A stretch of 64,000 nucleotides of DNA from Candidatus Aminicenantes bacterium (GCA_963702005.1 OY969696.1:1472001-1536000), one strand, 5' to 3'. Counted from the first letter of the stretch, positions 36,497-62,161 are shown. Numbers and translations are program-made. Notes: generated from the sequence alone by a model not told the origin.

Positions 36497-37545
36497 ATGC
36501 TCTTCCGGATCGCCTCGGCCGCCCTGCTGGGGATCGACGCCTACCTCGTCGAGGTCGAGGTGGACGTCTCGGCCGGGCTCCCCCAGTTCGTGATCGTGGG
36601 GCTCCCCGACGCCGCGGTCCGGGAGAGCAAAGAACGCGTTCAGGCGGCCCTCAAGAACTGCGGTTACGAAGGGATGCCCTCCAAGGTCGTCGTCAACCTC
36701 GCCCCCGCCAATCGGCGCAAGGAGGGCTCGTCCTTCGACCTGCCCATCGCGCTCGGCCTGCTCGCGGACCTTGGCGTCGTGCCCTCCGAGCGGCTCCGCG
36801 ACCGCCTCTTCCTGGCCGAACTGGCCTTGGATGGGCGGCTTAAGCCCGCTCGGGGGATCCTTGCGGCTACGGTTCTCGCCCGGAGCAAAGGATTCCATGG
36901 CGTCGTCGTCGCCAAGGACAACGAAAAGGAGGCCTGCTTGGTGGGGGATGTCTCCGTCCACGGCCCGGAGAACCTTGTCCAGGTCGTCCGGCTTCTCCAG
37001 GACCCCGAGGCCGTGCCGCCGTCCCGGTTCGAGCGCGAGCTCCTGCCGGCTTCCGAAGACCATGACCTCGATTTCGGGGATGTCAAGGGCCAGACCCATG
37101 CCAAGCGCGCCCTCGAAGTGGCCTCGGCGGGGGCCCATAACGTCTTGATGGTCGGGCCGCCGGGCGCCGGGAAGACCATGCTGGCCCGGCGTCTGCCGAC
37201 CATCCTTCCTCCCCTGAGCTTTGAGGAGATCATCGAGGCGACCCAGATCTACAGCGCCGCGGGGCTCCTCCGGGACCGGGCCTGCATAGCGTCCCGGCCC
37301 TTCCGCGCGCCCCATCACACGGTCACGGACTCGGCCATGATCGGAGGCGGGGCGATCCCTCGGCCCGGGGAGGTCAGCCTAGCCCACCACGGCGTCCTCT
37401 TCCTCGACGAGCTCCCCGAGTTCCGGCGCCCCGTCCTCGACGGCCTTCGCCAGCCGCTCGAGGACGGCCGGGTGACGGTCAGCCGCGTCCTGCATTCCGT
37501 CACGTTCCCGGCGCGGTTCATGCTCGTCGCGGCCATGAATCCCTG
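36497..37545 (+). pseudogene. comM: ComM/YifB Mg-chelatase-like ATPase, 5' part, interrupted by an integrative element
   Basis: [38 protein letters not shown]; homology stops at LVAAMNPC (normally NPCPCG). Confidence 0.92.
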
Positions 37546-39023
37546 TAGTTGCGTTGCTCAGTTGCCATCATTTTAGAAGATGAGGGAAGGTAGGCAAGAT
37601 GAATCGTGACGTCTTCCTTGCCGATAATGATCTTCTCGGTAATATTTTCTATGATTTTTCTTTTTTCTTCAGCGGTAAGCTCAGGCCAGCGGGAGTAGAG
37701 GTCTTTAGCTTCGGCCAGTATTTGATCACTAGAAAGGAATTGAATCTTCAAGAAATCTATCTCTCCTTGAAGATCGGGTATCCGAGTCTCAAGCTGTTTG
37801 ACTCTCTCTTCCAAGGGCTTATGATATCGTCCAAAGACTTCTACGGAAAGCTCGTTATTGATATAGGCTCGATAGAGCTTTTCCATCTCTGATTCGAGCT
37901 TCTTCTTTTCTTCGTTTATCGCCCGAAGTAGCTCTTCTTTTTCTTTGATCACATGATCGGCTTGGCTGAGGTAATTGGCTATCTCTTTAGGAGAGAAAAA
38001 GAAGGTCTTCAGCTGCTCATGAAAAATGTCTTCTAAATCCTTTTCTCCGATCTTGTTCCGGCACTTGTAGCAGATATATTTAGGAGAATTCGAGGGCACG
38101 TACATCTTATATTCGCACTGGCAGTAGACATGCCCGGTGAATAAGTGGACCGGCTTCCTGGCCGGTCTTTTATTGGTTTTTTCCTGCTCGTCGAGGATGG
38201 CGTTGCACTGATCCCAGAGCTCTTCAGAGATAATCGGTTCAACTTTTATATATACCCACTCGTCCGTGGGCTTGATGATCCGTTTTTTGCCCTTCTCCGG
38301 CGGTCCTTTTGTCCAGTTTGCTCGATGAAGACCCTTGGCTGTGGTGTCTTTTATAAGCCTTACAACCGTTGTATCCGAAAATTTATGGCCTCTTCTTGTA
38401 CGATATCCAGCTTCATTAAGCACCCGAGCGACTGTCTTTTTTCTTCTGTGTTCCAGGAAAAGCTCGTAGATTAGCTTGCGGAGAGGCGCTTCCTTGGGAT
38501 CCGGGATGAGCTTTTTTTCTTTCCATTGATAGCCAAAGGGAGCTTGTCCGCCAGTGGGTTTTCCCAGCTTAGCCCTGATTGAGACCGAAGCAGCTACTCT
38601 TTCGGAAATCTCTTCCCTTTCCCATTGGGCCATGGCTGCGATCATGGTGTAGAAGAGCCTGCCTGCGGGGGAGGAGGTGTCGATAGCTTCTTGGAGGGAT
38701 ATAAGGTCGACATTGTGTTCCCTGAAGATGTCAGCGAATTCAAGGAGTTCTTTGGTGTTTCTGGCGAGCCTGGCGAGCTTTGAAAATATCAAGGCAGTGA
38801 TATGGCCTGATTTGATATGTCCGAGCATTTTCTGGGTCTCGGGCAAGCCCATGACGGACTTTCCGCTGACAGCCTCAAGGTGATAGACCTCTTTAACCTG
38901 CCAGCCCTTGGATTCGGCGTAAAACCGGGCTCTTTTCTCGTGATGTTCCGGGCTTTCGCCCCTGGCCTGGTCTTCGGTCGAGACCCGAATCCAGATGCCA
39001 ACGGGCCTGGAGTTGACTATCAT
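37518..39023 (-). CDS. Large serine recombinase (integrase)
   Basis: WIRVSTEDQ catalytic Ser, [15 protein letters not shown] recombinase domain, CQC...CYKC zinc ribbon, coiled coil. Confidence 0.95.
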
Positions 39024-39093
39024 TAGAATCCTGAAATATAGAAGTAAACCTGAGATTATTTTATTCCGAGTAGGCCTTTATATCAATTAAATC

Positions 39094-39354
39094 TCATAGA
39101 ATCGATGAACGATGCGAGCTATGAGAGGCATGAGAAGAATGCGAACCGTGATTGGGGCCGCTTGGGATGTTGCAGGCGGCCATGCCTAATTTTAAGATCA
39201 GTCCTTGATTTTTTTGAAGGCCACTTTTATTGAAATTAAGTAATCTGCTTTTTATCGGACTGCCAAAATCACCTGAGGGCATTTTGGAAATAGAAAATCC
39301 TAAAAGTACAAATAACGATAACAATCCTTTAAGAACAATTTTGAATATTTTCAT
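39094..39354 (-). CDS. His-Xaa-Ser repeat precursor peptide (HxsA-like), 86 aa
   Basis: AGGGAG RBS; C-terminus HGS-HSS-HAS-HSS-HRS-SIL. Confidence 0.85.
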   Translation of the reverse strand: MKIFKIVLKGLLSLFVLLGFSISKMPSGDFGSPIKSRLLNFNKSGLQKNQGLILKLGMAACNIPSGPNHGSHSSHASHSSHRSSIL

Positions 39355-39575
39355 CTCCCTTAAGCTCCTTTTAGCAATTCTGTGACTACCAGGCACTTTC
39401 TTAGGAACTTCCTTATAGCGCCTGATCTCTGTTGAAATAAATATAATCGGGATATTCTTAATTGTCAAACACCTTTTTTCGTGTTTGTAAGCGTGAAGTT
39501 TGATAAAATAATATCACTATTTTTGGACGTGCCTTTAGTTTAGTATTAAATAAAATGAGGATTGGGGGAACAGGA

Positions 39576-40385
39576 ATGGAGAAAATTAAGAAAAAAGTCT
39601 ATGCGCTTGTCGAGGTCGTTTCGCACAAAGATCTCATAACTCGTAAGTTCGATGTTTTCGATATCTTCATTATCGTTTTAATTGTCTTGAATATTCTTGC
39701 TGTAATCCTCGAAACCGTAAAAGGTATATATAACTCAATTCCACAGCTGTTTAGGTATTTTGAAATATTCTCGATAATAGCTTTTACGATTGAATATACG
39801 CTCAGGGTTTGGACTTGTACGGTCAACGAAAAATATAGAAATCCTATTACCGGGAGAATTAGATTTGTTTTGTCTCCTCTTGCCTTGGTCGATTTATTTG
39901 CTTTCTTGCCGTTCTATATCCCAATGATCATCCCTTTCGACCTGAGATTTCTGAGAGCTTTCAGATTATTGAGATTGATCCGCGTTCTTAAGATCGGAAG
40001 ATATTCGGAAGCGGTCAAGCTCTTCGGTCGAGTACTAAATGCTAAAAGGGCCGAATTATTTACAGCGATATTCGTCATTTTCGTGCTTCTGATCATATCT
40101 TCGAGCTTGCTATACTATATCGAGCACGAAGCGCAGCCGGATAAATTTTCAAGTATTCCCGAGGCAATGTGGTGGGGCGTAGTCACTCTGACGACCGTAG
40201 GCTACGGAGATATCTATCCGATTACACCTTTCGGAAAATTCATAGCGTCCGTCATTAGCCTTTTGGGCATAGGCTTGTTTGCTATGCCCGCAGGTATCTT
40301 GAGCGCGGGGTTTGTTGAAGAGATTAAAACAAAAAAAACGGCACGGGATAAATGCCCTCATTGTGGGGTGGACTTGAACGATTGA
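39576..40385 (+). CDS. Voltage-gated-type potassium channel
   Basis: S4-like LRFLRAFRLLRLIRVLKIGR; filter TTVGYGD; C-terminal CPHC. Confidence 0.92.
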   Translation: MEKIKKKVYALVEVVSHKDLITRKFDVFDIFIIVLIVLNILAVILETVKGIYNSIPQLFRYFEIFSIIAFTIEYTLRVWTCTVNEKYRNPITGRIRFVLSPLALVDLFAFLPFYIPMIIPFDLRFLRAFRLLRLIRVLKIGRYSEAVKLFGRVLNAKRAELFTAIFVIFVLLIISSSLLYYIEHEAQPDKFSSIPEAMWWGVVTLTTVGYGDIYPITPFGKFIASVISLLGIGLFAMPAGILSAGFVEEIKTKKTARDKCPHCGVDLND

Positions 40386-40449
40386 AAAAAGACGAAATGA
40401 AGAATAAAGTCCGAGATAGGATGATGAATAAGCGTAAGAGTAATCGGCA

Positions 40450-42129
40450 GTGACTCTAAATCCTTTTGAAGTGACGGGCATTTTCTTTTTCGGAAGCCTG
40501 GTTCTCGGATTTGGTTATTTAACGATAAACAAATACACAAGAAATGTATTCAAGAAGTATTGGAAAATCATCATCATCTTGATCTTGGTCAACATTGCTA
40601 TGAAGATTCCTTATAAATCGTATTTCTTTGATGGCTTGGAATATGAAGACTCTTATATCTACAAGGCTTCAGCCAGGGCACTCTATGAAGGAGAATACGA
40701 ATTCTCAGCTATCAACCCTTACTATCCGACATCTTGTATTTGTGGGAGTCTGAAAGACTGCCGAATGTCAGGGATTTTTGTTACGAACTTTTTAGGCTAT
40801 CCATATCTCATTAATCTCGGCTATCGCCTTTTTGGCTATCAGATAAATATCGCCAATATCGTTTCGCTGTTATTTTCGGGGATATCGATTGCTTTTTTAT
40901 TTACAGCGGCCCTTCTCATAATAGACAAGCTTCTTTTTGCCCTTATCTGTTGTTTTATCTATATCACGATCCCCATATTCAACGTATATGCTTCGACTTC
41001 GCTGACCGAACCATTGTCCAACGCCTATCTGATCCTAATACTTCTGCTATGTCTGACATTTATGAACCCGGACATAGAAGGAAAAAGAGTTCAATTTCAA
41101 AATATCCTTGGATTATCTGCTATTGTCTTCAGCCTGATATTCTCGATTCTGGTAAAGACCACCAATATATCTTTGGTCGTCTGTCTGCCGGTTGCCGGCC
41201 TGATATCTTTGGTGGCCGATAAGAAGATTAAAGATAAATATCAGAGGAACAGGCTCTTGATCTTTCTTTCGGTCATCTTTCTTGTATTTTTATTCAGCGC
41301 CCTGGTATTGAAATTTCAGGCGGCGGTTGAAATCAATAGAGGAGATATCGGGGCAAATCCCTTCTCACTTTCGTATTTTAAATCCCTGGCCCCGGTATTT
41401 GTTAAGTCTTTCTTTGATTTCCAATGGTATTTAGTCTATACGATATTTTTCCTTACTGGAATCGTTTTTGGGTTGAAAGAGAAGAACGGAATATTACCGA
41501 TTATTGTTTTTGTCTTCTACTTCGTTTTATATACGGTCCACTATCGGAGCTATTATTTTACACGGGGCCTTCCTGTGATGAAGGATGAAGCCCTGAGATA
41601 TATGACGAGCATCGTTTCGGTATACTCGCTTATTGTCGGTCTTGGCATTTATTATCTCTGGCGCTCGATCAAAAAAGCAACGACGAATAGCCAGGTAAGG
41701 CTTTTTGATAAATCATTAATCGCTTCGCTGCTTGTTATTATTCTGGGCGTATCTGTGTTCTTCACGCTCAAATGCCGAGCTCATTTCGTAGAAGACGAAC
41801 AAAACGTTCGAGTTGCACCAGTGATAAAAACCTTAGATTATTTATCCACCAAAGACGATGTCTTGATTACTTCCGAGCATGTTCTCTTCCAGATATACGG
41901 AAACGCTAATCTCAGGCTTATCGATTTCTGTTCCATTGGCACCCTAATTTCTAAAGAAGGAATCGATAGCCTGATTAGATCAGCTAGTGTCTATTACCTG
42001 GAAACGATATCCCGGGACAGCTTGGATGAAAAACGGTATCGACCGCAACTGCAATATCTCGATTCAAAGAGGAAAGAACGTGTTTATTCCGGTCAGGATT
42101 TCAGAATCTTTCGGTTGTTACCTGAGTAG
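40450..42129 (+). CDS. Polytopic membrane protein, GT-C (ArnT/PMT)-like
   Basis: Many TM helices; acidic first loop LEYEDSYIY, GYPYL, SLTEP, LRY motifs; soluble C-terminal domain. Confidence 0.55.
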   Translation: MTLNPFEVTGIFFFGSLVLGFGYLTINKYTRNVFKKYWKIIIILILVNIAMKIPYKSYFFDGLEYEDSYIYKASARALYEGEYEFSAINPYYPTSCICGSLKDCRMSGIFVTNFLGYPYLINLGYRLFGYQINIANIVSLLFSGISIAFLFTAALLIIDKLLFALICCFIYITIPIFNVYASTSLTEPLSNAYLILILLLCLTFMNPDIEGKRVQFQNILGLSAIVFSLIFSILVKTTNISLVVCLPVAGLISLVADKKIKDKYQRNRLLIFLSVIFLVFLFSALVLKFQAAVEINRGDIGANPFSLSYFKSLAPVFVKSFFDFQWYLVYTIFFLTGIVFGLKEKNGILPIIVFVFYFVLYTVHYRSYYFTRGLPVMKDEALRYMTSIVSVYSLIVGLGIYYLWRSIKKATTNSQVRLFDKSLIASLLVIILGVSVFFTLKCRAHFVEDEQNVRVAPVIKTLDYLSTKDDVLITSEHVLFQIYGNANLRLIDFCSIGTLISKEGIDSLIRSASVYYLETISRDSLDEKRYRPQLQYLDSKRKERVYSGQDFRIFRLLPE

Positions 42130-42169
42130 AAGGAAATTATTCGTAAGGATATTGTAAAGGAGAATTCAG

Positions 42170-42493
42170 ATGTCTGAGGAAGATAAGATCGAAATCAAAA
42201 TCGACCTATCAATTTACGATAAAGTGGCCACATTGAAGACCTGCTATGTTTTTCAGGATAGGTTTTATACTAGCCTTGAAACAGAGGTTGGATCCATTGC
42301 AATCGTTAAGCTGATACCTAAAAAAGAGTCAATTGACCTTGAAGAGATCGAAAAGCAGTTTAAAGATGAACTGATTGATCAACAAATTAGATTAGAAAAC
42401 GAAAAACTATTTTCCGAAATCAGAAAACTGATCGTCGAACAGGCATTCAAACCAATAAGCTATCCGGAGTTTAAAGCAAATATTGGGAAATGA
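42170..42493 (+). CDS. hxsD: His-Xaa-Ser system protein HxsD-like
   Basis: IDLSIYDKVATLKTCYVF...FKDELIDQQIR...IRKLIVEQAF; directly upstream of hxsB. Confidence 0.8.
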   Translation: MSEEDKIEIKIDLSIYDKVATLKTCYVFQDRFYTSLETEVGSIAIVKLIPKKESIDLEEIEKQFKDELIDQQIRLENEKLFSEIRKLIVEQAFKPISYPEFKANIGK

Positions 42494-43953
42494 AATTTAA
42501 TAATCTGGCCTACACGATTCTTCCTTTTCGGTTCATGAGGTTCGGGCCTGATGTGCTGATTATCAATGAAGCTGGAGGATACGGTTTTCTATCCGGCAAA
42601 GACTTCAACCGGTTTATAAATTATCAGCTGGACCCGAAAGAGGACGTATTCTTGAATCTGAAAAATAGGCACATTGTAACTGACACAGACCTGGCGCTTC
42701 CAGTTTACCTTTTAGCTACCAAGTACAGAACGAAAAAAAGTTATTTATATGATTTCACGGCCCTGCACATTTTCATTATCACCCTGCGCTGCAGTCAAAA
42801 ATGCCGGTATTGCCAAGCGAGCAGTGAGGATGAAGCCCAGCTCGGATTTGATATGAGCGCAGAAATAGCAAAGAAGTGCGTTGATCTGGTTTTTCAGTCT
42901 CCTTCGCCGGCAATAAAGATTGAGTTCCAAGGCGGGGAGCCGCTTCTCAATTTCGAGGCGGTTAAATATGTTGTCAAATACGCGAAGAAACTCAATGGGG
43001 TGTATCGGAAGAATCTCGAATTCGTCATCTGCACCAATCTATTAGGACTAAATAAAGAAATTCTGAATTACCTCGCGGAACACCAAATATGGATTTCCAC
43101 TTCTTTGGACGGGCCGAGAAACTTGCACGATGCCAATCGAATAACTAGAAAAGGCACAGGGACATATGACGTGGTTAGAAATAATATCCGGCTAGCCCAG
43201 GACAGGCTCGGGATTGAGAGAGTTTCTGCGCTTATGGTCACTACGAGAGATAACGTTCATAAACTGAATGATGTTGTTGATGAATATATCGATCAAAGAT
43301 TCAATTCAATTTTTATCCGAACCATCCATCCTTATGGAAGGGCAGCCAAAGAAAAACTCGGCTGTGACGTTGAAGCCTTTATCGAGAATTACAAAAGAAC
43401 CTTGGATTACATAATCAGGCTTAACCTTGATGGAGTGATGTTTTCTGAGCAATATGCCACGATCATTCTAAAAAAGATATTAACTCCATTCGCCACGACG
43501 TTCGTTGATCTTCAATCTCCGGCTGGAACCGGAATCAGCTGCGTCGTCTACGGTTATAACGGCGATGTCTTTGTCTCTGATGAGGCAAGGATGCTCTCCA
43601 AGATGGGCGACAACCGGTTTATGATGGGAAATGTTTATAAAAACAAATATCAAGAAATATTTAAGGGCAAAGTTATTCGGGAAACCGTGGAAAATTCGTG
43701 CGTTGAAAACATGCCTCTTTGTTCTGAATGCGCTTTCCAGTTGTATTGCGGCGCTGATCCTGTCCGGAACTACAGCATGCAGGGTGATCTCATGGGACAC
43801 CGGCCCACTTCCGAATTCCATCAAACCAATTATCTGATTATCCGTCATTTAATAGAACTTATTAAACAAAACGACCCGGAGATCATGAACGTCTTTTGGT
43901 CATGGATCACAGCCCGGTCGATTGAAGAGATTAAGGGATCAAAAAGAGGATAA
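42490..43953 (+). CDS. hxsB: His-Xaa-Ser system radical SAM maturase HxsB
   Basis: LPFRF, LATKYRTKK, CSQKCRYCQAS, IKIEFQGGEPL, VDLQSPAG, SDEARML, SPASM-like CSECAFQLYCGADP. Confidence 0.9.
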   Translation: MKFNNLAYTILPFRFMRFGPDVLIINEAGGYGFLSGKDFNRFINYQLDPKEDVFLNLKNRHIVTDTDLALPVYLLATKYRTKKSYLYDFTALHIFIITLRCSQKCRYCQASSEDEAQLGFDMSAEIAKKCVDLVFQSPSPAIKIEFQGGEPLLNFEAVKYVVKYAKKLNGVYRKNLEFVICTNLLGLNKEILNYLAEHQIWISTSLDGPRNLHDANRITRKGTGTYDVVRNNIRLAQDRLGIERVSALMVTTRDNVHKLNDVVDEYIDQRFNSIFIRTIHPYGRAAKEKLGCDVEAFIENYKRTLDYIIRLNLDGVMFSEQYATIILKKILTPFATTFVDLQSPAGTGISCVVYGYNGDVFVSDEARMLSKMGDNRFMMGNVYKNKYQEIFKGKVIRETVENSCVENMPLCSECAFQLYCGADPVRNYSMQGDLMGHRPTSEFHQTNYLIIRHLIELIKQNDPEIMNVFWSWITARSIEEIKGSKRG

Positions 43954-43957
43954 TAAT

Positions 43958-45094
43958 TTGCGGCAGCTAAGTGGAATACCTTTGAATTCCAGGGCTAGGA
44001 TAATAGGGAAAATATCCAAAAACTCCGCTCAAACAAAGGAAATAAAGGACTGCATTCTTGTGACTGAATCAATTGAAAAGAGGATTAAGAGATTTAAGGC
44101 CATCTTATGCTTAGCTGCCATCGAAAAAACGACAGCTGAGCGGCTCAAAACGCCGATTGTTCATGGCGTTGAGAATATCGAAGCCTTAAGCGAGGGCGAT
44201 ATTGTCATCGTTGATATGGTAACCGGAGAGATTATTGTTGTTTACGAAAAGAACTCCGTTCACAATTCAATCCTCGCTTCAACGGACTGCAATTGCCGCT
44301 GTATCATGTGCCCTCAATCCTTGGTCGAGGATTCGCCGGAGAACCTTAAGAACAATATAGAAATCATCAGATTGATCGATAAAAACACCAAGGCTTTGGG
44401 AATCACAGGCGGAGAGCCCCTGATCCTGGGAGACGGCTTAATCAAGCTTTTAAAGGAATGCAAGAGACTATTGCCCGAGACTCAAATTCAGATTCTGACG
44501 AACGGGACATTGTTAAAAGATGATGCTTATATCAGACGCATAACCCTGCTGAGGCTGAAGAAACTGATTTTTTGCATTCCACTCTATGCTGATACAGATA
44601 GAGAACATGATTTCATAATGCAACGGAACGGCGCTTTCGAAGACACGATCCAGGGATTATATAACCTTGCGGCCAGAAAGCAGCTGGTCGAGATCCGAAC
44701 CGTTGTCATGTCGCTTAATTATCGGCGACTCCCTCAAATTGCCGAATTTATTTACCGTAATCTACCTTTTGCTATCCACGTTGCCTTTATGGGCATGGAA
44801 GTCGAGGGTCAGGCAAGAAAGAATATCCAGAAGCTCTGGGCCAGCCCTGTTGAATACGCGCCCTACTTGAAGGAGGCCGTCATTTATCTTTCGCGACAGA
44901 ATATGGATGTTTCGATCTATAACGAGCAATTGTGTTTGATGCCCAATGAGATATGGAATTTTATGCGAAAATCAATTTCCGAGTGGAAAAATACATACTT
45001 AGAAAAATGCAGCTGTTGTAGGGCTAAAAATGAATGTGCGGGCTTTTTCGCCCAACCGGTAGAGGAGCATAAACGCCTTATCAAGCCCCTCTGA
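43958..45094 (+). CDS. hxsC: His-Xaa-Ser system radical SAM maturase HxsC
   Basis: CNCRCIMCPQ, GITGGEP, VAFMGME, KSISEWKN...CSCC...CAGFF; TTG start inferred. Confidence 0.88.
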   Translation: MRQLSGIPLNSRARIIGKISKNSAQTKEIKDCILVTESIEKRIKRFKAILCLAAIEKTTAERLKTPIVHGVENIEALSEGDIVIVDMVTGEIIVVYEKNSVHNSILASTDCNCRCIMCPQSLVEDSPENLKNNIEIIRLIDKNTKALGITGGEPLILGDGLIKLLKECKRLLPETQIQILTNGTLLKDDAYIRRITLLRLKKLIFCIPLYADTDREHDFIMQRNGAFEDTIQGLYNLAARKQLVEIRTVVMSLNYRRLPQIAEFIYRNLPFAIHVAFMGMEVEGQARKNIQKLWASPVEYAPYLKEAVIYLSRQNMDVSIYNEQLCLMPNEIWNFMRKSISEWKNTYLEKCSCCRAKNECAGFFAQPVEEHKRLIKPL

Positions 45095-45175
45095 ATCTCC
45101 ATAATAAGGGACGGTGAAAAATTATCCTTGACTTCTGGAAACGATTCGGATAATTTTTGGACTGAGGGGATTAAG

Positions 45176-45874
45176 ATGAAAACAATAAATAAAATTGGCT
45201 ACGGGCTTTTGTCTTTGGTCACTCTCTTTTTCTATACCGTAACGAACGGGTTGCCCAGAAGCAGAATTTTCAGTTCAATTAAAGAGAAAGTTTTAAAAAT
45301 TCAAAAAAATAATGCTAATGCTCCTGAGAGTTTGATATTAAAGCAATCAAATAGTTCATATGGTAATGAGTACGCGAGTCATACTTCCCATAGATCGCAT
45401 AGCTCTCATCGTTCGCATGCCTCACATCGGTCAGGTACGACTGGGACGGTCAGATCTGCACCCGCAAAAAAAACGGCTCCTGCCACCACATCAGTTTACG
45501 CAAATCCATATGCTCAATATCTTACCGTTGCTGATGTTGAAACAATAACGAGTTTCAGCGGCATCCAGCAAAACCTAGAGCCCTCCATTCTCCATTTTCT
45601 TCGCGAGGATGGGAAGGAAATCCTTCAGGTGAAGTTCTGGACGAAAGAATATTTCAGCAACTTCAAAAACGACAACAAATATAGCCCAATTAGTGGAATC
45701 GGGGAAGCGGCTCTTGTCGGCACACCGCAATTGCCGATCGAATTGGTTTTTACAAAAGGGAAACATTGTGTCGAGATTTCGACTTTCCCCGAGGAAGGAC
45801 TTATACTATTTGTGTCTTTAGATCAGCTGAAGACCGTTGCTAATTATATTTCATCTCGGCTGACAGATTATTAA
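45176..45874 (+). CDS. Second His-Xaa-Ser repeat protein with C-terminal globular extension
   Basis: HTS-HRS-HSS-HRS-HAS-HRS followed by ~145 aa; leader resembles 39094-39354. Confidence 0.85.
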   Translation: MKTINKIGYGLLSLVTLFFYTVTNGLPRSRIFSSIKEKVLKIQKNNANAPESLILKQSNSSYGNEYASHTSHRSHSSHRSHASHRSGTTGTVRSAPAKKTAPATTSVYANPYAQYLTVADVETITSFSGIQQNLEPSILHFLREDGKEILQVKFWTKEYFSNFKNDNKYSPISGIGEAALVGTPQLPIELVFTKGKHCVEISTFPEEGLILFVSLDQLKTVANYISSRLTDY

Positions 45875-45907
45875 GCCCGAACCCCAATTCGGCTTGTCAG
45901 AACGAAG

Positions 45908-46999
45908 ATGAGAAAAATCAAAATAGGAATGTGGCCTATAATTCTGGGTTTCTTTTTTTTAATTGCCTGTGCTTCTTCACCTCAGCAGCCTGTCAAGGTC
46001 GCTGCAAGTCCGGAAAAGACTAAGACATTAGAGATTCATGTCATTAACGTCGGTCAGGGAGACAGCTTTCTGATTATCTCGCCGTCCGGGAAAAGAGTCC
46101 TCATTGACGCAGGAAATACTGGCCGTGGTGCTGGGTTTGTCCTTCCTTATCTTCAAAGCCATAAAATATCTTCAATCGATTATATCATTGCATCTCATTT
46201 TCACTCAGACCATATTGGCGGCCTTGACGAAGTTGTAAACGGCCTGGGCGGGAGTACGCAAATCTTGAGCGCTGCCTTTGACAGGGGCGGAACATATAAT
46301 TCTGGTGCTTTCAGAGAATACATAACGTCAGTCGGAAAAAAAAGAAAGACCATTTCTCCCGGCCAAATAATTGACTTGGGCGACGAAGTTATAATGAAAT
46401 GCATCGCCTCTAATGGAGATATTCCAAGTGGAAGGATATATTCAGGCACGGATGAGAATACGCTGTCGATTGTCCTTTTATTAAAGTATCGTACTTTCGA
46501 TATATACCTGGGCGGAGATAGCAATTCGGCAATTGAGCCTTCTCTTGTTCCCTATGCCGGCGATGTCGACGTTTATAAAGTAAGTCATCATTGCAGTGCC
46601 ACAAGCTCGACCCAAGAGCTTCTTGATTGTTTGAAACCCGAAGTCTCGGTAATTGCCGTTGGAAATGGCAATACCTATGGACATCCCAATTCTGAGACCC
46701 TTTCCAGATTAATCGCTATAAATAGTTATATTTATCAGACAGAATCAGGGGCTGCTGTGCCGCCGGTTGGAAAGGGCGAGGTTGCCAATGGGAATTTTTT
46801 GATAGTTACCGATGGCGATTCCTACACAATTTCTGGTTCAGCGCTAGTTAGTAAAACAAGATTGACCGATTCAAATCAAGCCTTCGCCTATTTGATGGAC
46901 GAATACTCAAGGCAATGGCCTTTTACTTATATTATATCTATCCAGAAAATGAAGCTGACGAGGGTGAGCGAATTAAACAGAATTTGGCATGGAGCCTGA
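45908..46999 (+). CDS. ComEC-like metallo-beta-lactamase-fold lipoprotein (probable nuclease/hydrolase)
   Basis: Lipobox LIAC; NVGQGDS, SHFHSDHIGG, KVSHH, NTYGHP. Confidence 0.88.
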   Translation: MRKIKIGMWPIILGFFFLIACASSPQQPVKVAASPEKTKTLEIHVINVGQGDSFLIISPSGKRVLIDAGNTGRGAGFVLPYLQSHKISSIDYIIASHFHSDHIGGLDEVVNGLGGSTQILSAAFDRGGTYNSGAFREYITSVGKKRKTISPGQIIDLGDEVIMKCIASNGDIPSGRIYSGTDENTLSIVLLLKYRTFDIYLGGDSNSAIEPSLVPYAGDVDVYKVSHHCSATSSTQELLDCLKPEVSVIAVGNGNTYGHPNSETLSRLIAINSYIYQTESGAAVPPVGKGEVANGNFLIVTDGDSYTISGSALVSKTRLTDSNQAFAYLMDEYSRQWPFTYIISIQKMKLTRVSELNRIWHGA

Positions 47000-47031
47000 C
47001 AGGAAAGCAATAATAGAGATAAGGAGGTTTC

Positions 47032-47460
47032 ATGGGCAAAATAAAAGTCCTGTTTCCGTTTATATGTTTACTTATTATCTCCAACTCCCTTCTTAGCCAG
47101 ACACAAACATCCAGAACCCAAACTATCCTAACTACAGCAGAGGCGGCTCAGCATATTGGAGAAACGGTCACAGTGTGTGGCCTTGTAGTGGACACGCGTT
47201 ATGCTTCATCAAGCCGAGGAAGGCCGACCTTCCTAAACCTGGACAAACCCTATCCAAAACAAGTCTTTACTGTGGTGATATGGGGGGAGGACCGGGACAA
47301 ATTCGGAGAGCCTGAAGAGAAATACCGTGACAAGCATATTTGTGTGACAGGCAAGATTAGAAGTTATCGAGGCGTGCCCCAAATTCAGGTAACCGATCCA
47401 AAGCAAATTGAGGTTAAAGAAGAGCAGCAAACTATTGAAAGCGTTTCTAAGTCTCGTTAA
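47032..47460 (+). CDS. Exported OB-fold nucleic-acid-binding protein
   Basis: Signal peptide; HIGETVTVCG, TFLNLDKPYP..FTVVIW, VTGKI..YRG.PQI. Confidence 0.75.
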   Translation: MGKIKVLFPFICLLIISNSLLSQTQTSRTQTILTTAEAAQHIGETVTVCGLVVDTRYASSSRGRPTFLNLDKPYPKQVFTVVIWGEDRDKFGEPEEKYRDKHICVTGKIRSYRGVPQIQVTDPKQIEVKEEQQTIESVSKSR

Positions 47461-47931
47461 CAAATGAGGCGGCTGGAGGCCAGATTTTCCCTGGCCTCCC
47501 GATATCAGAATGACCGCCTTGAAGCAGGATATGCGCCTCATATGTATAGACGGTGGGAATAGCGTAAGATACCATCTAAAAAATATCGCTAGTTCATCCT
47601 CAGGATAAAAAGGTAGGTTCAATGCTCCGGCCGCAGTGAAACGAGGTCGCATCTCGATAACTTTATCTCTGAACGTTTGAAGAAGATGGCTCGAATAGTT
47701 TTCATTGAAGATTAAGCTTGGCAAACGAAAATTAGATTGCTTGCCTTGATTTGGTTCAATAATATCAACTCTTGACGATATCCCTTCTTTGAAGGATAAT
47801 ATTTCCGATATTGGAGGGGGGAGGTGCCTTTGATGGTCCTCGGGAACGCCACTCATTTCCAGTCCTAGAATTATGGGATTTTCTGGCTTCGGCAAGGGTA
47901 ATATTTAAATATTTCAAAGGGGAGGTTTTGT

Positions 47932-49540: not shown

Positions 49541-50923
49541 ATGAAAAAGAAAGCTTTATTTCTCGTCTTCGTCTTTCTTCTTCTCTCTCTTCCTTCGGAG
49601 GCCGTAAAGCTCGTCACCTGGAACCTGCTGAACTTCCCGGGATCCACGGGCGCCGCGCGCGAGGATGACTTCCGGCTGGTGATCAACAAGATCGCGCCCG
49701 ATATCCTGGTCGCCCAGGAGATGATCGATCTCACCGGCTGCAATCAGTTCCTCATTCAGGTGATGAACTTCACCATCCCCGGGAAGTACGCGGCCGCGCC
49801 TTTCTACGACAGTAGCGACACCGATAACGCGCTCTTCTACCGGAGAGCGACTATCACCTATCTTGGGAAGACCCAGATCAAAACACCTCTCCGGGACATC
49901 ACGGAATACGTCCTGAAAGTGAAGAGCGGGCCCGGGACGGGGACGACGTTTCGTGTCTACTCGATACACCTCAAAGCAGGATCCGAAGCAGCCGATAAGA
50001 CTGAGCGCACTGAGGAAGCGAAGAAACTCAGAAATCGTCTGAACGCGCTCTCCGTGAACACCCTGGCCCTTGCCTGCGGCGATCTCAACCTCTATACGAA
50101 CGATGAGGTCGCCTACCAGTACCTGGTTAACCACGACGCCCCCTACTACGCGCGGCTGAACGACCCCGTCCAGAAGCCCGGGAAGTGGCATGACGGATCC
50201 CAGTTCGCGCTGATTCATACCCAGTCGACCCGGACCACCCAGTTTGGCGGGGGCGCGTCGGGCGGCCTGGATGATCGCTTCGACTTTATCCTGATCTCGG
50301 ATCCGATGATGGCAAGCACGAAGTTGGGCTATGTCCAGGGGAGCTATAAGGCTTATGGGAATGATGGAAAGCATTTCAACAAGGCCGTCAACGCCGGCAC
50401 AAATTATGCCGTTGGTAAAGCCCAGGCCAATGCCCTGTGGGCGGCCTCTGATCATCTCCCGGTGATGGTGGAGCTCCTCCCCCAGTCTGGCGGGATCCCG
50501 AAGGCCCCGACCGGCCTGGTCGCCCCTTCGATCTCATCGACACAGATCCAGCTTTCCTGGAACGACAAGTCGAATAACGAGAAGGGCTTTAAGATCGAGC
50601 GGAAATCAACGGGCGACTGGGCCCAGATCTGCACGGTCCTGGCCAACACAGAGACCTATCTCAACGGGGGACTTTCCTCAGCTTACACCTACACTTATCG
50701 AGTTCGAGCGTACAACACGGACGGAGATTCAGAATATTCCAACGAAGCCTCCCGGAAGCCTGGCGAGGATATCACGGTCTACATCACGAACACCGGGACT
50801 AAATACCACCGGAGCAGCTGTCACTACCTCAGCTCGAGCAAGATCCCGATCAATCTGCTCGATGCAAAGGCACAGGGCTATACGCCGTGCTCGGTGTGCG
50901 ATCCGCCAACGAGCCATCGCTAG
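49541..50923 (+). CDS. Secreted endonuclease/exonuclease/phosphatase-family protein with FN3 and C-terminal Zn-binding domain
   Basis: Signal peptide; TWNL, VAQE, HLKA, GDLN, RFDFIL, SDHLPV; FN3 LSWND...YTYRVRAYN; TGTKYH..C...PCSVC. Confidence 0.88.
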   Translation: MKKKALFLVFVFLLLSLPSEAVKLVTWNLLNFPGSTGAAREDDFRLVINKIAPDILVAQEMIDLTGCNQFLIQVMNFTIPGKYAAAPFYDSSDTDNALFYRRATITYLGKTQIKTPLRDITEYVLKVKSGPGTGTTFRVYSIHLKAGSEAADKTERTEEAKKLRNRLNALSVNTLALACGDLNLYTNDEVAYQYLVNHDAPYYARLNDPVQKPGKWHDGSQFALIHTQSTRTTQFGGGASGGLDDRFDFILISDPMMASTKLGYVQGSYKAYGNDGKHFNKAVNAGTNYAVGKAQANALWAASDHLPVMVELLPQSGGIPKAPTGLVAPSISSTQIQLSWNDKSNNEKGFKIERKSTGDWAQICTVLANTETYLNGGLSSAYTYTYRVRAYNTDGDSEYSNEASRKPGEDITVYITNTGTKYHRSSCHYLSSSKIPINLLDAKAQGYTPCSVCDPPTSHR

Positions 50924-52751: not shown

Positions 52752-53357
52752 GAAAGCTTTACAGGCTGCCCCGTGGCTTGCCACGGGGTGGAATGTATGC
52801 CTTGCCGAGGGGGTGATCAGGGGGACCGGAAAGTCCCCCTGATCCACAAAGGCCCTTGCTCGGGAATATGGTAGAGTATATGGGTGACGCTGAAACGGAC
52901 GAGTCATTCGGTCTACGACACGTCCTACCATCTGGTCTGGTGTCCGAAGTACCGGAAGAAGATATTCGAGCGGGTGGAAGTCCGGGAACGAGCGAAACAG
53001 ATCGTGGGAGAGATTTGCGAATCGTACGATATTGAAATCATCGAGATGGAAATTACCGAAGATCATATTCATTTGCTAGTATCATTTCCGCCATCGCGAT
53101 CGATCGGGGAGGTCGTCAGGATCATAAAGAGCATGAGTGGGAGGGGGTTGTTTCGCGAGTTTGCGGGCTTGAAAAAGAAGCTATGGGGCGGGGAAGTGTG
53201 GGAGGACGGATATTTCGCAAGGACGGTCGGAGACCGGATGACGAGGGATGTGATCGCGAAGTACATCGTCAGTCACCGAGAACTGGAGCAAGGGCCTGCG
53301 CAGCTGGCCTTGAAGCTGCGCTCCTAATGCCCCGCGGCTTGCCGCGGGGATCTTTAC
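52752..53357 (+). mobile_element. IS200/IS605-family element, tnpA only
   Basis: Subterminal hairpins ccccgtggc-tt-gccacgggg (52769-52788) and ccccgcggc-tt-gccgcgggg (53330-53349); no tnpB. Confidence 0.88.
52884..53327 (+). CDS. tnpA: Y1 HUH transposase
   Basis: YHLVWCPKYR, DHIHLL (HUH), WEDGYFARTVG, KYI catalytic Tyr. Confidence 0.95.
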   Translation: MTLKRTSHSVYDTSYHLVWCPKYRKKIFERVEVRERAKQIVGEICESYDIEIIEMEITEDHIHLLVSFPPSRSIGEVVRIIKSMSGRGLFREFAGLKKKLWGGEVWEDGYFARTVGDRMTRDVIAKYIVSHRELEQGPAQLALKLRS

Positions 53358-58406: not shown

Positions 58407-61298
58407 ATGGCACAAGAAATGCTCTTCCCAGAAGGATCAAAATGGAGAAAATGGGACCTTCATATTCATAGTCCACTTTCTATACTTAATAATAAATATC
58501 CAAAATCTGCCAGTGGCAAGCCGGACTGGGGAGGCTTCATAGATAAACTAGAACGCTCGGACCTAGCTGTAATTGGAATTACAGACTATTTTTCTATCGA
58601 AGGCTATAAAAAGGTACTGGATCTTAAGAATAATGAGAAGAGATTATCGAACATATTCACCGTGCTTCCGAATATTGAATTTAGACTCAACAGTGTATTG
58701 TCTAGTAAAAAAAACGGGAGACATCCTCGAAGATTAAACTTCCATGTGATTTTTTCAGATGAGGTCTCTTGCCGAGACATCGAGGAGCATTTTTTACACG
58801 ATCTTCTTTTTTATTATGAAGGGAACCCTCAAGATAAAGACGAGAGACGAAAATTGAAATTATCTAATCTTAGGGAATTGGGGGCGAAACTCATATCTCA
58901 ACATAGCGGATTTGAAGGAAAGGATGCGCTTGAAGTTGGCGCAACGTGTGCAGTGGTCAACCATGAAGATATAACGGAAATTCTGAGTGGGGATAGCAGA
59001 TTTAAAGGGAAGTACATAATAGTTTTTCCTGAAGACCTATTCAGCCTGATAGATTGGGATGGACAGGATCACCATATAAGAAAAGGGGTGCTTCAGAAAT
59101 CGGATATGGTTTTTTCTTCTTCTCAAAAAACGATTCAGTGGTGCCTTGGGAAACCACCTTATCAGGAAGGCGAAAAGAAGTTTATTGAGGAGTTTAAGAC
59201 CCTGAAACCATGTGTTCACGGCTCTGACGCGCATCAAATTGAGGAAATTGCGGCTCCTTGTGCAAAAAGAGGAGAGCCGGATCATAAATGCGGAGAGTCT
59301 TCTTCAAAGTGCGAGATGAGGTACTGCTGGATCAAAGCTGATCCGATATTTGAGGGATTGAGACAGTTGCTTTATGAACCAGAAGAAAGAGTTAAGATTC
59401 AAGAAGATGACCCCACGCCTTCAAGAAGCAATATAACGCTGTCAAAAATCACCGTGCCGGGATCAGAAATTAATGAAGAGCTATCAATAGCTAAAACGGA
59501 AATAGATCTAAATATAGGCTTAGTGGCTGTTGCAGGAGGAAAGGGCACTGGGAAAACAGCCTTTGTTGATTTGATTGCGAATTGCTTTCAAGATCGCGTT
59601 AATACAGACGACAAGAACTCATTTGTGAAAAGAATAGTTGACCAAAAGCCTGATCTGGATGTTGAACTAGACTTTAAAAATAATATAATTTTCAAGAAAA
59701 AGATTAGGGATGATTCTTATTTCCAGGAGGGAGAGATATTATATATTGCCCAGGGCGAGCTCGAGCATTACATCGGAGAAGGATCTGATCTAGACAAGTA
59801 TGTAAATAATTTAATATTTCTTAATCCTAAGATCATAAATTCACTACAAAAATACGAATACTCGAAGATGGAAGCCGATCTCAAGGAAATAGAAGCGAAG
59901 ATACAAAAGAAGTCTGAGTCAATAGAGCGGCTAGAACAAGAAACTGTAAGTGCTGTTCTACGAGACGCCGAAATAAAAGAAAAACAGCTTCAGAATTCCC
60001 TGAGAGATATAAATCAGCGATTAGCTGAATTAGAAAAAAAGCTTAGTATCGATAAGGTAAAAATCGCCAAAGAAAAACAGGGAAGAATGGCTGAGTTAAA
60101 AACGAAAAAGGAATTATATGTTGGATTGAAAGAACAAATTGGATTAGCGATTAGTTTTTTTGATGAAGAATTAGTTGGATTAAATACGATAATAAGAAGG
60201 ATAAATAACATCCTCGAATCATTGGGGATCCCCGAAAAATATCCTGAGATTAATTATGCTGATCGCAGCAAATTGATAGAGCGGTCAAACCAAACCGATG
60301 GAATAGTTACGAAAATTATTGGAGAAATCGAAGTAATTCAAAAAGAGATAAACAAGTATGAGATTGGCATTCAAGATCATGCATCTCTGCTCAACAAGAA
60401 GAAAGACATAGAAACCTCAATAGAGAAAAGCAATACGAGGCTAAAGAACCTTGCTTTTAAGAAGACAAAGTTGTCTGAAGATATATTACAGAGAAAGAAC
60501 CTCTTCAAGGATATGATCATTGCAGTAGTGGCTCTAAAAACTAAATATGCAGAAGTTATAAAATTATTTTCCTCTCAAAAAGCCATAGTACTCTCCGATA
60601 TTGAATTCATCGCCGAGATGACGTTTGACGCTGAAGGTGTCTTGAAAAACGCAGAGGATGTATTAGATAACAGAAAGGTGATTGTCTACCCTGAAGGAGA
60701 TGGTTGGGTTTTTAAAAGAATGATAGAAATATATGGTCAAATAACGGCCGGAGATACAACAAAGGCTGACGAATTGGTTGAGGAAGTTGAGCGTCTAAAT
60801 AATGAATTGAAACCTAAAATTAAATCCTCAAGTGCAGTCAATGTGGGAGATTTCTATAAATTCTTATATACGAATTATTTAAATGTTCTTCCTGTCGTTA
60901 AGTATAAAAATACCAGGATCAATAAATTGTCGCTTGGACAAAAGGCGACAGTGCTTATAAAAATATATTTAGCTGAAGGAGATAATCCAATTATTATAGA
61001 TTCACATGATGAACACCTGGATAATGCGTATATCATGGAAGAATTAACAGGGTCGATTAGAGAAGCTAAAAAATATAGACAAGTGATCATGGTTTCAAAC
61101 AATGGCAACATAGTGGTAAATAGTGATGCGGAACAATTGATAATAGCGGAGCGGAATGATGAAGGAGAAATATCTTATATAGCTGGGTCAATCGAGAATC
61201 CTACCATACGAGAGAAAGCGATAAAAGTCTTAGAAGGCGGGCCGGAGGCATTTAAGAAACGACAGCAAAAGTATCGTATCTCTGGCTCAGCATTCTAA
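58407..61298 (+). CDS. PHP phosphoesterase + ABC/SMC-like ATPase (Ppl/TrlF-like)
   Basis: WRKWDLHIHSP, GITDY, HGSDAH, WIKADP; GGKGTGKT; coiled coil; LSLGQ, IIIDSHDEHLDN. Confidence 0.85.
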   Translation: MAQEMLFPEGSKWRKWDLHIHSPLSILNNKYPKSASGKPDWGGFIDKLERSDLAVIGITDYFSIEGYKKVLDLKNNEKRLSNIFTVLPNIEFRLNSVLSSKKNGRHPRRLNFHVIFSDEVSCRDIEEHFLHDLLFYYEGNPQDKDERRKLKLSNLRELGAKLISQHSGFEGKDALEVGATCAVVNHEDITEILSGDSRFKGKYIIVFPEDLFSLIDWDGQDHHIRKGVLQKSDMVFSSSQKTIQWCLGKPPYQEGEKKFIEEFKTLKPCVHGSDAHQIEEIAAPCAKRGEPDHKCGESSSKCEMRYCWIKADPIFEGLRQLLYEPEERVKIQEDDPTPSRSNITLSKITVPGSEINEELSIAKTEIDLNIGLVAVAGGKGTGKTAFVDLIANCFQDRVNTDDKNSFVKRIVDQKPDLDVELDFKNNIIFKKKIRDDSYFQEGEILYIAQGELEHYIGEGSDLDKYVNNLIFLNPKIINSLQKYEYSKMEADLKEIEAKIQKKSESIERLEQETVSAVLRDAEIKEKQLQNSLRDINQRLAELEKKLSIDKVKIAKEKQGRMAELKTKKELYVGLKEQIGLAISFFDEELVGLNTIIRRINNILESLGIPEKYPEINYADRSKLIERSNQTDGIVTKIIGEIEVIQKEINKYEIGIQDHASLLNKKKDIETSIEKSNTRLKNLAFKKTKLSEDILQRKNLFKDMIIAVVALKTKYAEVIKLFSSQKAIVLSDIEFIAEMTFDAEGVLKNAEDVLDNRKVIVYPEGDGWVFKRMIEIYGQITAGDTTKADELVEEVERLNNELKPKIKSSSAVNVGDFYKFLYTNYLNVLPVVKYKNTRINKLSLGQKATVLIKIYLAEGDNPIIIDSHDEHLDNAYIMEELTGSIREAKKYRQVIMVSNNGNIVVNSDAEQLIIAERNDEGEISYIAGSIENPTIREKAIKVLEGGPEAFKKRQQKYRISGSAF

Positions 61299-61417
61299 AT
61301 CTAAATTTGTCTTTGAAATCATCATCGGCAACTCATCTTGCGACTCAAATATGATCTATCTATGGCTGTATTCCGGGTCTTTGGCCTTCGATGTGAAAAC
61401 TTTCTCAGCATTGTCGG

Positions 61418-61990
61418 TCATAACAGGTCAAACAACAAGCTTGGTGCGATATCTGCTCCTTCTCCAAAATACGGGCATAGCTCACATTCGGGACATGTCG
61501 ACATATCTCTATCTTTACTTCCGCAAGATGTAGCAATTCTTTTCTTTATCTCTAGAGCCCTCAGATTCCTTAGGCCTTGGAATTCCTTGAATTTACGATA
61601 ACCTTTTGCTGCACGGCGATACCATTTCACGAAATCTTCGACGTCGATGTGGATAATAGTCTGGGGTAACTTTTTCTTAATATCCCTTGGCGGCTTGAAG
61701 GGGCTCAGAACGACCAAAACATTTGCGCCCCTAAAACGCGGGTCTTTATGATGTCCATGCTTTATATATAATTCACAGGTTTTTTCAACTTCTACGATAA
61801 CCTCCATGCCTTCAAATACCGCTTTGAAGTCTGGCCCAAATTTAAAAGGTCCCTTAATCTTAGAAAAACCTAATTTTTTATAATTCTCTCTAACATATTC
61901 ATTAATCCAATATTCCCTAATGCCACCTTTCTCAGCACGTTCGTGTGCAGTTGGCTTTGTAGGTTGACTCGCAGCTTTTTCTTGCTTCAT
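61418..61990 (-). CDS. Restriction-endonuclease-like hypothetical protein
   Basis: GPDFKAVFEGMEVIVEVEK (PD-ExE-like); C-terminal Cys cluster. Confidence 0.5.
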   Translation of the reverse strand: MKQEKAASQPTKPTAHERAEKGGIREYWINEYVRENYKKLGFSKIKGPFKFGPDFKAVFEGMEVIVEVEKTCELYIKHGHHKDPRFRGANVLVVLSPFKPPRDIKKKLPQTIIHIDVEDFVKWYRRAAKGYRKFKEFQGLRNLRALEIKKRIATSCGSKDRDMSTCPECELCPYFGEGADIAPSLLFDLL

Positions 61991-62161
61991 GCAGCACCCT
62001 TAACTGATTTTCTCTCCATTGCTTCGCCATTGTCAATTCCTTTACTGAGTCTTTCTATGTGCTAGATTAAAAGTATACCAACCAGTCAATCCTTATCAAT
62101 TGATAAATTCTTGGCTCAAATCTATTATTGACTCCGGCTTTCAGTTGATACATCCAGCGCT

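Follow-up and report, generated by a model that had tools for sequence, protein, structure and literature searches.

A HXS-type cassette with proposed clade-specific membrane and exported partners on a comM-targeting island of a Candidatus Aminicenantes bacterium

A His-Xaa-Ser (HxS) radical S-adenosylmethionine (SAM) locus lies at positions 39094 to 45874 of a 64,000-nucleotide (nt) stretch of the genome of Candidatus Aminicenantes bacterium (GCA_963702005.1 OY969696.1:1472001-1536000), the whole of which is called the window here. By analogy with the HXS system of Escherichia coli, the locus is probably an intact, horizontally acquired anti-phage system of the HXS type that belongs to a distinct clade, a reading to which we assign a probability of about 0.62. 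What appears to be new is the set of clade-specific partners and the swapped effector domain; the HXS family and its anti-phage role are already known. A preliminary description of the locus gave an incomplete gene content, having overlooked a conserved GT-C-like membrane protein, a metallo-beta-lactamase (MBL)-fold lipoprotein, and an OB-fold protein.

Li et al. (Nat Commun 2026; PMC13128918) reported that HxsDBCA gives E. coli broad protection against phages by blocking the entry of their DNA. According to that paper, HxsA is a periplasmic effector and not a diffusible ribosomally synthesized and posttranslationally modified peptide (RiPP), and it combines a signal peptide with five HxS repeats and a peptidoglycan-binding domain. 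N-terminal cleavage and periplasmic accumulation of HxsA depend on each of HxsB, HxsC, and HxsD, and the SHRSS motif in its last repeat is the site of a +8 Da change. The order D-B-C-A is given there for 99.6% of systems, 99.8% consist of just four proteins, and 99.7% are in Pseudomonadota. The earlier statement that the family has no settled biological role is thus outdated, and the "RiPP-like" label attached to the locus does not agree with the behavior of E. coli HxsA (PMC13128918).

The HXS core, its effector, and its conserved neighbors

The three maturase genes lie on the plus strand, and their products all exceed the curated NCBIfam cut-offs in a His-Xaa-Ser hidden Markov model (HMM) search, which upholds the original assignment of the locus. 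HxsD (42170 to 42493) scored 66.1 bits against TIGR03976 (cut-off, 50). HxsB (42490 to 43953), a radical SAM/SPASM enzyme with a CSQKCRYC motif, scored 572.6 bits against TIGR03978 (cut-off, 370) in a match that spans profile positions 1 to 466 and contains CxxxCxxC, and HxsC (43922 to 45094), a radical SAM enzyme with a CNCRCIMC motif, scored 343 bits against TIGR03977 (cut-off, 267.9). The radical SAM cysteine motifs of HxsB and HxsC are intact, and hxsD, hxsB, and hxsC are bona fide family members. Together with the effector gene, they follow the canonical D-B-C-A order over 42170 to 45874, all on the plus strand. PADLOC (2023), which has no Hxs models, gave only weak viperin-like matches for HxsB and HxsC, and viral contigs scanned with HxsB and with an alignment of the upstream membrane protein yielded no match.

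For comparison, 23 related loci (from 4 species genomes and 19 metagenomes) were fetched with HxsB as the query, and the window proteins were mapped onto them by tblastn. Eighteen of these loci form a related clade whose HxsBs are 63% to 87% identical to that of the window. Fourteen of the 18 reach upstream of hxsD, the other 4 beginning inside hxsD or hxsB, and 12 extend beyond hxsC. HxsB homologs occur also outside Pseudomonadota, the records of L020 to L023 being labeled Bacteroidaceae, Campylobacteraceae, Cloacimonadales, and an archaeal bin. The closest species-genome match, L020 (71% identity in HxsB and 69% in the membrane protein), is a 6,154-bp contig of a Promethearchaeota archaeon metagenome-assembled genome (MAG); its neighboring genes are of bacterial type, and the contig may just as well be mis-binned as truly archaeal.

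The gene after hxsC encodes a long HxsA-like effector of 232 amino acids (aa) (45176 to 45874, plus strand, with the ATG at 45176), which consists of a signal peptide, a leader, six HxS triads at residues 69 to 86, a Thr/Pro/Ala-rich linker, and a folded C-terminal domain at residues 109 to 232. The signal peptides of this protein and of the second HxS protein of the window were judged by eye. The 232-aa protein does not reach the HxsA equivalog model TIGR03979 (44 bits versus a cut-off of 121.65, covering profile positions 38 to 101 only), and its scores against the HxsA2, HxsA3, and HxsA4 models (38.3, 27.1, and 24.2 bits) are below their cut-offs of 48, 65, and 55. Among the 12 clade loci that extend past hxsC, 9 have a long HxsA of about 230 aa that is 61% to 84% identical to the window copy, and 3 (L026, L036, and L039) have a short form of about 88 to 112 aa that ends after the repeats and is the only HxS protein of the locus.

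The C-terminal domain was modeled with a predicted local distance difference test score (pLDDT) of >90. Its best VIA-align matches were Dip2269 (3v7b; Z, 10.3), the PknH sensor (4esq; Z, 10.1), TiME (7cu8; Z, 9.6), and Tsi3 (Z, 8.7), none of which is titled a peptidoglycan-binding domain, and it resembles PsbP and Mog1 more loosely. A Foldseek search of the HxsA model against PDB gave no match at an E value of ≤0.001, so that the fold assignment rests on VIA-align, and Pfam found no family in residues 105 to 232. The effector of this clade is predicted to end in an exported domain like those of PsbP, Mog1, and the PknH sensor, and the match to the HxsA family profile is confined to its leader and repeats. 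A profile search of 1.84 billion representatives retrieved 114 relatives of this domain with a median length of 162 aa, of which 30 have a lipobox-like motif and 4 have HxS repeats. Because only 4 of the 114 relatives carry HxS repeats, a stand-alone exported domain appears to have been fused to the leader-repeat module in this clade. Another effector architecture of the family was observed in the Cloacimonadales MAG (L023, 3264 to 4463), in which the HxS-repeat protein reaches about 390 aa through an extended C-terminal part rich in Asn and Ser, and its gene is followed by one for an Rce1-like CAAX protease.

The cassette belongs to a plus-strand array in the order K+ channel, GT-C-like membrane protein, hxsD, hxsB, hxsC, hxsA, MBL lipoprotein, and OB-fold protein, in which the genes overlap or are spaced by at most 81 nt. 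No terminator-like site was found on the plus strand between 39555 and 46118.

The gene directly upstream of hxsD (40450 to 42129, plus strand) encodes a polytopic membrane protein of 559 aa that resembles GT-C-type glycosyltransferases. A homolog that is 51% to 78% identical occupies the same position in all 14 clade loci with coverage, and the protein is absent from the distant loci L021 and L022 (HxsB identity, 44% to 47%), which have more than 7 kb of upstream flank. The family is small, with 44 clusters, and those members that have a name at source are called "hypothetical protein." A Pfam search of 12 homologs at E values up to 10 returned only weak matches to DUF6541 (6 of 12; best E value, 0.0002) and DUF1409. 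Three independent routes point to a place in the GT-C glycosyltransferase superfamily. The nearest ESM Atlas clusters of the 559-aa protein carry PMT_2; the first 22 Foldseek matches of its model are all GT-C enzymes (best E value, 7.8e-5; template modeling [TM] scores, 0.29 to 0.45), including STT3, ArnT, PglB, AglB, DPY19, and ALG9/12; and hhalign aligned the family profile with P0049 over 480 columns (probability, 98.9%; E value, 2.9e-17), P0049 itself passing the PMT_2 model (PF13231) with 36.3 bits (cut-off, 26.1). In 3 of 11 loci (L020, L026, and L042), a gene for a GT2 glycosyltransferase of about 265 aa adjoins the membrane-protein gene.

Downstream of the effector gene, a ComEC-type MBL-fold lipoprotein of 363 aa is encoded at 45908 to 46999 on the plus strand (Lactamase_B, 58.9 bits; cut-off, 22.7). 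It scored 93.7 bits against the full ComEC model TIGR00361 (cut-off, 190), over profile positions 439 to 659, and stays below the cut-off because it has the MBL part only. The lipobox Cys21 and the HxHxDH motif (H97, H99, D101, and H102) are invariant in all nine aligned sequences, and the MBL gene follows the long hxsA in nine of nine related loci. The next gene (47032 to 47460, plus strand) encodes an exported OB-fold protein of 142 aa with a signal-peptide-like N terminus, which scored 22.8 bits against PF01336, below the cut-off of 27. A 220-aa minus-strand open reading frame (ORF) that overlaps the OB-fold gene (47233 to 47895) matched no family and was taken as spurious.

Homologs of the OB-fold protein are encoded as tandem pairs in three loci; in L024 and L029 they come after the MBL gene, and in L036 they adjoin an SNase gene. 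Such SNase genes, whose products have an N-terminal signal or anchor, adjoin the cassette in two of the three short-HxsA loci; the SNase gene lies downstream of hxsA in L039 and, together with a double OB-fold gene, upstream of the membrane-protein gene in L036. This double OB-fold protein has a weak match to DUF4131, the ComEC N-terminal domain (E value, 0.0015; below the cut-off). In total, an exported protein of a nuclease family is encoded beside the cassette in 11 of 12 related loci, 9 of them with MBL and 2 with SNase, which are unrelated folds; the exception is L026, whose flanks were only partly scanned. A complex prediction of residues 22 to 325 of the MBL lipoprotein with residues 105 to 232 of HxsA, run without controls, scored 0.00, which speaks neither for nor against contact.

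Farther downstream in the window (49541 to 50923, plus strand) is a gene for an exported DNase I-like (Exo_endo_phos) protein with fibronectin III. The C terminus of this protein is formed by a Cys-rich module (YIT.TG.KYH...C.YL..SKIPI...GYTPC..C.PP) about 45 aa long, two copies of which also terminate the SNase encoded after hxsA in L039 (2215 to 3045). This gene has a G+C content of 0.57, above that of its neighbors, and is not conserved in the other related loci.

The short HxS-repeat protein

A second HxS-repeat protein, of 86 aa, is encoded on the minus strand at 39094 to 39354, where the start codon (ATG at 39354) is preceded by a GGGAG Shine-Dalgarno sequence. It consists of a signal peptide, a leader with the motif GLILKL and a cysteine at residue 61, and five triads at residues 69 to 83 (HGS, HSS, HAS, HSS, and HRS), and it ends in SHRSSIL. 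The last repeat reads SHRSS, and the long protein has SHRSG at the same place. The triad counts first given for the two proteins, five in the divergent upstream ORF and six in the downstream one, were exact. Among the 54,996 stop-to-stop frames of at least 40 aa in the whole genome, no others contain three or more consecutive triads. The hxsDBC genes had been described as bracketed by the two HxS genes; the flanking order holds, but the K+ channel gene and the membrane-protein gene intervene before hxsD. The 86-aa protein scored 27.6 bits against TIGR03979 (cut-off, 121.65) and 24.4, 19.6, and 19.7 bits against the HxsA2, HxsA3, and HxsA4 models, below the cut-offs given above. The sequence MAAC at residues 58 to 61 was considered as a lipobox and rejected, as it lies about 40 residues past the hydrophobic segment.

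Both leaders are 68 residues long, with GLLSL at residue 10, IK at residues 34 and 35, LILK at residues 52 and 53, respectively, and the first repeat histidine at residue 69. The leader motifs noticed previously therefore stand at matching positions, but LILK lies 13 residues ahead of the first repeat and not immediately before it. Because a plain BLASTP comparison of the 86-aa and 232-aa proteins was not significant (32% identity over 81 aa; E value, 0.81), a leader-only HMM was built from 10 long HxsA proteins with the repeats left out. It gave the leader of the 86-aa ORF 18.0 bits, a score reached by none of 5,000 full shuffles and by 1 of 5,000 segment-preserving shuffles, in which the signal-peptide segment is kept apart. 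Among 41,023 ATG-initiated N termini of the genome, the 86-aa ORF ranked second after HxsA (17.6 bits; E value, 0.006; next score, 8.4 bits). Judged by the shuffles and by this ranking, the leaders align better than random and are homologous, as had been proposed, and the 86-aa protein is best regarded as a paralog of the leader-plus-repeat part of HxsA.

The metagenome contig L033 has the same arrangement of recombinase, small ORF, K+ channel, membrane protein, hxsDBCA, and MBL genes. The window and L033 copies of the 86-aa gene differ by an in-frame indel of two codons, with a dN/dS ratio of 0.135 at a dS of 0.98 (neighboring genes, 0.04 to 0.15). BLASTP against a collection of 5.8 billion proteins retrieved four further clusters of 85 to 89 aa with 73% to 91% identity; the frame is intact in all of them, and Cys61, which is not found in the long HxsA leaders, is invariant in the resulting five-member family, in which identity to the window copy ranges from 77% to 93%. 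These comparisons indicate that the 86-aa ORF is a real gene under purifying selection. The longest contigs of two 86-aa-family clusters are equal in size (10,690 and 52,800 bases) to those of close membrane-protein homologs, which suggests that two more loci may carry both genes.

A promoter-like site, TTGACA-17-TATATT (39440 to 39468, minus strand), lies about 85 nt upstream of the 86-aa gene and matches the consensus at 11 of 12 positions. It is the best such site in 38900 to 47600, and it is a consensus match only, since the number of such sites there is no higher than in shuffles. By tblastn the gene was found in 1 of the 23 related loci, and it is present in 1 of the 9 related loci with at least 1.9 kb upstream of the membrane-protein gene. 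In L037, the slot between the recombinase and the cassette holds a BamHI-type restriction-modification pair instead. Most likely, the 86-aa protein serves the same maturases as a second substrate without an anchor; it is an optional add-on and not part of the core of the system. The proposal of one maturase set with two substrates is plausible and is still at the stage of inference: the small gene is encoded opposite to hxsD and 2.7 kb away from it, has a promoter-like site of its own, and is present in only one of the nine loci.

The island, its recombinase, and its host

The cassette had been proposed to be the first cargo of an integrative element, and its position beside the recombinase, between the halves of a split yifB/comM gene with a shared CCCTG core, bears this out. 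The 5' part of yifB/comM (36497 to 37545, plus strand; TIGR00368, 442 bits over profile positions 2 to 350 of 499) is cut by the island, and its frame runs on into island DNA to 37576. The 3' part (profile positions 357 to 499) resumes 55.7 kb downstream on the same strand, at G000:1565265-1565690. This corresponds to 93265 to 93690 in window-equivalent coordinates, i.e., the window numbering extended past its end into the 4.31-Mb host genome. The left junction (attL) has its CCCTG core at 37541 to 37545, and the same five bases occur at the right junction (window-equivalent 93235 to 93239). The island so delimited is 55,694 bp long, and its inner ends are imperfect inverted repeats. Near 37.5 kb the G+C content drops from about 0.62 to a level of about 0.40, and it does not recover until about 93 kb (window equivalent); it ranges from 0.36 to 0.50 in the island versus 0.59 to 0.66 in the host.

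A large serine recombinase of 501 aa is encoded at 37518 to 39023 on the minus strand (Resolvase, 108 bits; Recombinase, 66 bits), with a Zn_ribbon_recom match of 19.6 bits, below the cut-off. With these domains encoded at one of its ends and its target gene split, the island has the makeup of a large serine recombinase integrative element. In L033 and L037, homologous recombinases (81% and 79% identical, respectively) lie at the same position and abut comM at the same residue. Because the same comM residue is used there despite an identity of only 70% to 72% between these comM fragments and that of the host, the island appears to belong to a family of site-specific elements that insert in comM. 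HxsB was found above its cut-off in the host itself and in none of its 40 relatives (1 of 41 genomes). From this distribution, the G+C contrast, the split comM gene, and the shared comM site in L033 and L037, it is concluded that the cassette is horizontally acquired. BamA and LpxC were found above their cut-offs in the host, which therefore has a periplasm (diderm).

The island is a mosaic that contains a second serine recombinase, a tyrosine integrase, an IS200 element, coupling-protein-like genes, and defense genes, and it is probably a composite of nested elements. The second large serine recombinase and the tyrosine integrase lie at window-equivalent 67035 to 71825, and the IS200-type transposase lies at 52884 to 53327 of the window. 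A PD-Lambda-2 B/C pair (469 and 138 bits) is located just past the window end, and Ppl-like, mad8-like, and Panacea-domain genes are also part of the defense cargo. At 58407 to 63461 of the window and window-equivalent 64052 to 66347, this cargo includes, with the PD-Lambda-2 pair, a 963-aa AAA_23 protein with a Ppl-like C terminus (79 bits) and a SocA/Panacea-domain gene. In related loci, restriction-modification, ResIII/NERD, and OLD-like genes lie beside the cassette. Right after the comM 3' part, a low-G+C (0.40) PAS/HD-GYP gene was observed at window-equivalent 93864 to 95675, with an architecture similar to that of an in-island gene (L019, 5047 to 6942); a single insertion may thus be too simple an account of the right boundary, or else the gene marks a second acquisition next to it.

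Between the recombinase and the cassette, divergent from the 86-aa gene, a K+ channel-like protein of 276 aa with six transmembrane segments, a TVGYGD filter, and a Cys-x2-Cys tail is encoded at 39555 to 40385 on the plus strand (Ion_trans, 120.9 bits). A copy with 88% identity occupies the same place in L033, and L026 has one with 61% identity at a distance of 4 kb downstream of hxsA. The gene is reduced to its last 30 to 38 codons in L024 and L034, where these remnants lie directly upstream of the membrane-protein gene and beside other defense-type genes. The K+ channel thus seems to be an old but dispensable neighbor of this HXS clade.

Interpretation and comparison with known systems

If the locus works like its E. 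coli counterpart, the exported HxS proteins would be matured in the cytoplasm by HxsB, HxsC, and HxsD, and mature HxsA would act in the periplasm against incoming phage DNA. The synteny further suggests that the GT-C-like enzyme is an integral partner, which would modify or position the effector or its surroundings from the periplasmic face with a polyprenyl-phosphate sugar, supplied in some loci by the neighboring GT2. The MBL lipoprotein with its OB-fold partner would cut DNA held by the effector in the periplasm, and the 86-aa protein would be a second, unanchored substrate. A tentative "arrest and destroy" scheme, which we consider doubtful, would have the effector hold phage DNA in the periplasm while the coencoded exported nuclease and OB-fold binders degrade it before it reaches the cytoplasm. 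Equally tentative are its details, in which the effector might be glycosylated or positioned by the GT-C enzyme, the nuclease might be MBL or SNase, and the 86-aa protein might be a freely diffusing effector.

Several points weigh against the reading of the locus as an HXS-type anti-phage system with integral partners. The assignment of an anti-phage function is borrowed from systems defined by an HxsA model whose cut-off the window protein does not reach (44 versus 121.65 bits), and the extra genes of the window cassette are without published precedent in a family in which, according to PMC13128918, 99.8% of systems have four genes and 99.7% are in Pseudomonadota. The synteny was scored from the HxsB side only, every related locus having been fetched via HxsB. 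The 559-aa protein has no NCBIfam match and, at E values up to 10, matches no Pfam family, and its structural model is of low confidence (pLDDT, 59). An MBL fold alone is no proof of nuclease activity. The 86-aa gene is dispensable, being absent from eight of the nine related loci that extend far enough upstream to show it, and HxsBCD are no more than presumed to modify its product.

The GT-C-like, MBL, and OB-fold genes could be independent defense-island cargo that merely adjoins hxsDBCA, as defense islands pack unrelated systems together, here and in the related loci alike. The canonical system needs four genes only (PMC13128918), and MBL-fold proteins match parts of the defense systems LmuA, Avs1a, and DRT in PADLOC. 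This reading is somewhat unlikely, since the order stays fixed while the flanks vary, with the membrane protein in 14 of 14 loci and the MBL gene in 9 of 9 at a synonymous divergence of about 1 to 3. A GT2 partner lies beside the membrane protein in three loci, and an unrelated SNase fold replaces the MBL gene in two short-HxsA loci, in one of them with OB-fold proteins. The gaps of 33 to 81 nt and the array without terminator-like sites also speak for integral partners. Much less probable is that the locus makes secreted, His-rich, modified RiPP-like peptides, for example metal-binding ones, with a role other than phage defense. His-rich repeats could bind metals, HxsB is nearest to peptide-modifying SPASM maturases, and the short forms consist of leader and repeats only. 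Against this, the cassette lies in defense-rich islands both in the window and in its relatives, and no RiPP-export-type transporter or peptidase is conserved beside it in the related loci. The only experimental study of the family (PMC13128918) found phage defense with the effector retained in the periplasm.

As for the 86-aa protein, it may instead be a partial hxsA duplicate that is not modified by HxsBCD and has another use (with the K+ channel, as a decoy, or as a regulator) or is being lost. Its gene has the opposite orientation, the distance of 2.7 kb from hxsD, and a promoter-like site of its own; in L033 it is accompanied by the K+ channel and recombinase genes, and it is missing from most informative loci; and the protein has an invariant Cys61 foreign to the long leaders and scores below the cut-offs of all four HxsA models. 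We regard this alternative as unlikely. The dN/dS ratio at a dS of about 1 is like that of the neighboring genes, the frame is intact in five of five family members, and the leader keeps GLLSL, IK, and LIL at the HxsA positions. The S-H-x-S-S end, modified in E. coli HxsA (PMC13128918), is also kept, and a short HxsA without the C-terminal domain is the sole HxS protein in L026, L036, and L039, which favors the reading of the 86-aa protein as a second substrate.

The radical SAM chemistry of HXS and the way in which its effector stops DNA are both unsolved according to PMC13128918, and the clade offers natural experiments on both, with short and long effectors beside closely related maturases and with the anchoring domain of the effector swapped. 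The occurrence of two unrelated exported nuclease families at the cassette raises the question of whether HXS only blocks DNA or also destroys it. It is also an example of HXS transfer between hosts, with a serine-recombinase island that targets comM as the vehicle.

Parts of the clade-specific gene set resemble other known systems. The MBL domain of ComEC, a DNA uptake channel with OB-fold, channel, and MBL domains, is a nuclease. The lipoprotein matches this MBL part with HxHxDH kept and is followed by an exported OB-fold protein, whereas no channel domain is present here and the domains are separate exported proteins. Pairs of a GT2 and a GT-C enzyme, such as ArnC/ArnT, GtrB/Gtr-type, and Ppm/Pmt, act in periplasmic glycosylation. 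Although no Pfam GT-C model matches the 559-aa protein directly, it is a homolog of a PMT_2 member, ArnT, STT3, and PglB are among the matches of its model, and a GT2 gene of about 265 aa stands beside its gene in three related loci. HxS-repeat types beyond HxsA have already been cataloged as HxsA2, HxsA3, and HxsA4 (NF038296, NF038309, and NF038313); the 86-aa protein resembles the short HxS forms that end after the repeats, and both window proteins score below the cut-offs of these three models.

The closest likeness is to the canonical HXS systems of E. coli, Klebsiella, and Pseudomonas. The window locus shares with them HxsD, HxsB, and HxsC above the equivalog cut-offs, the order D-B-C-A, and an effector in which a signal peptide and a leader bearing the hydrophobic L-x-L-[EK] motif precede five or six basic repeats ending in S-H-x-S-[SG]. 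It differs in that its HxsA falls below the equivalog model and is predicted to end in a PsbP/Mog1/PknH-sensor-like domain, and in that its clade adds the GT-C-like membrane protein, the MBL lipoprotein, and OB-fold proteins; no GT-C-type enzyme is part of the systems described in PMC13128918. The window locus further has a second, short HxS protein, and its cassette is carried on a comM-targeting serine-recombinase island.

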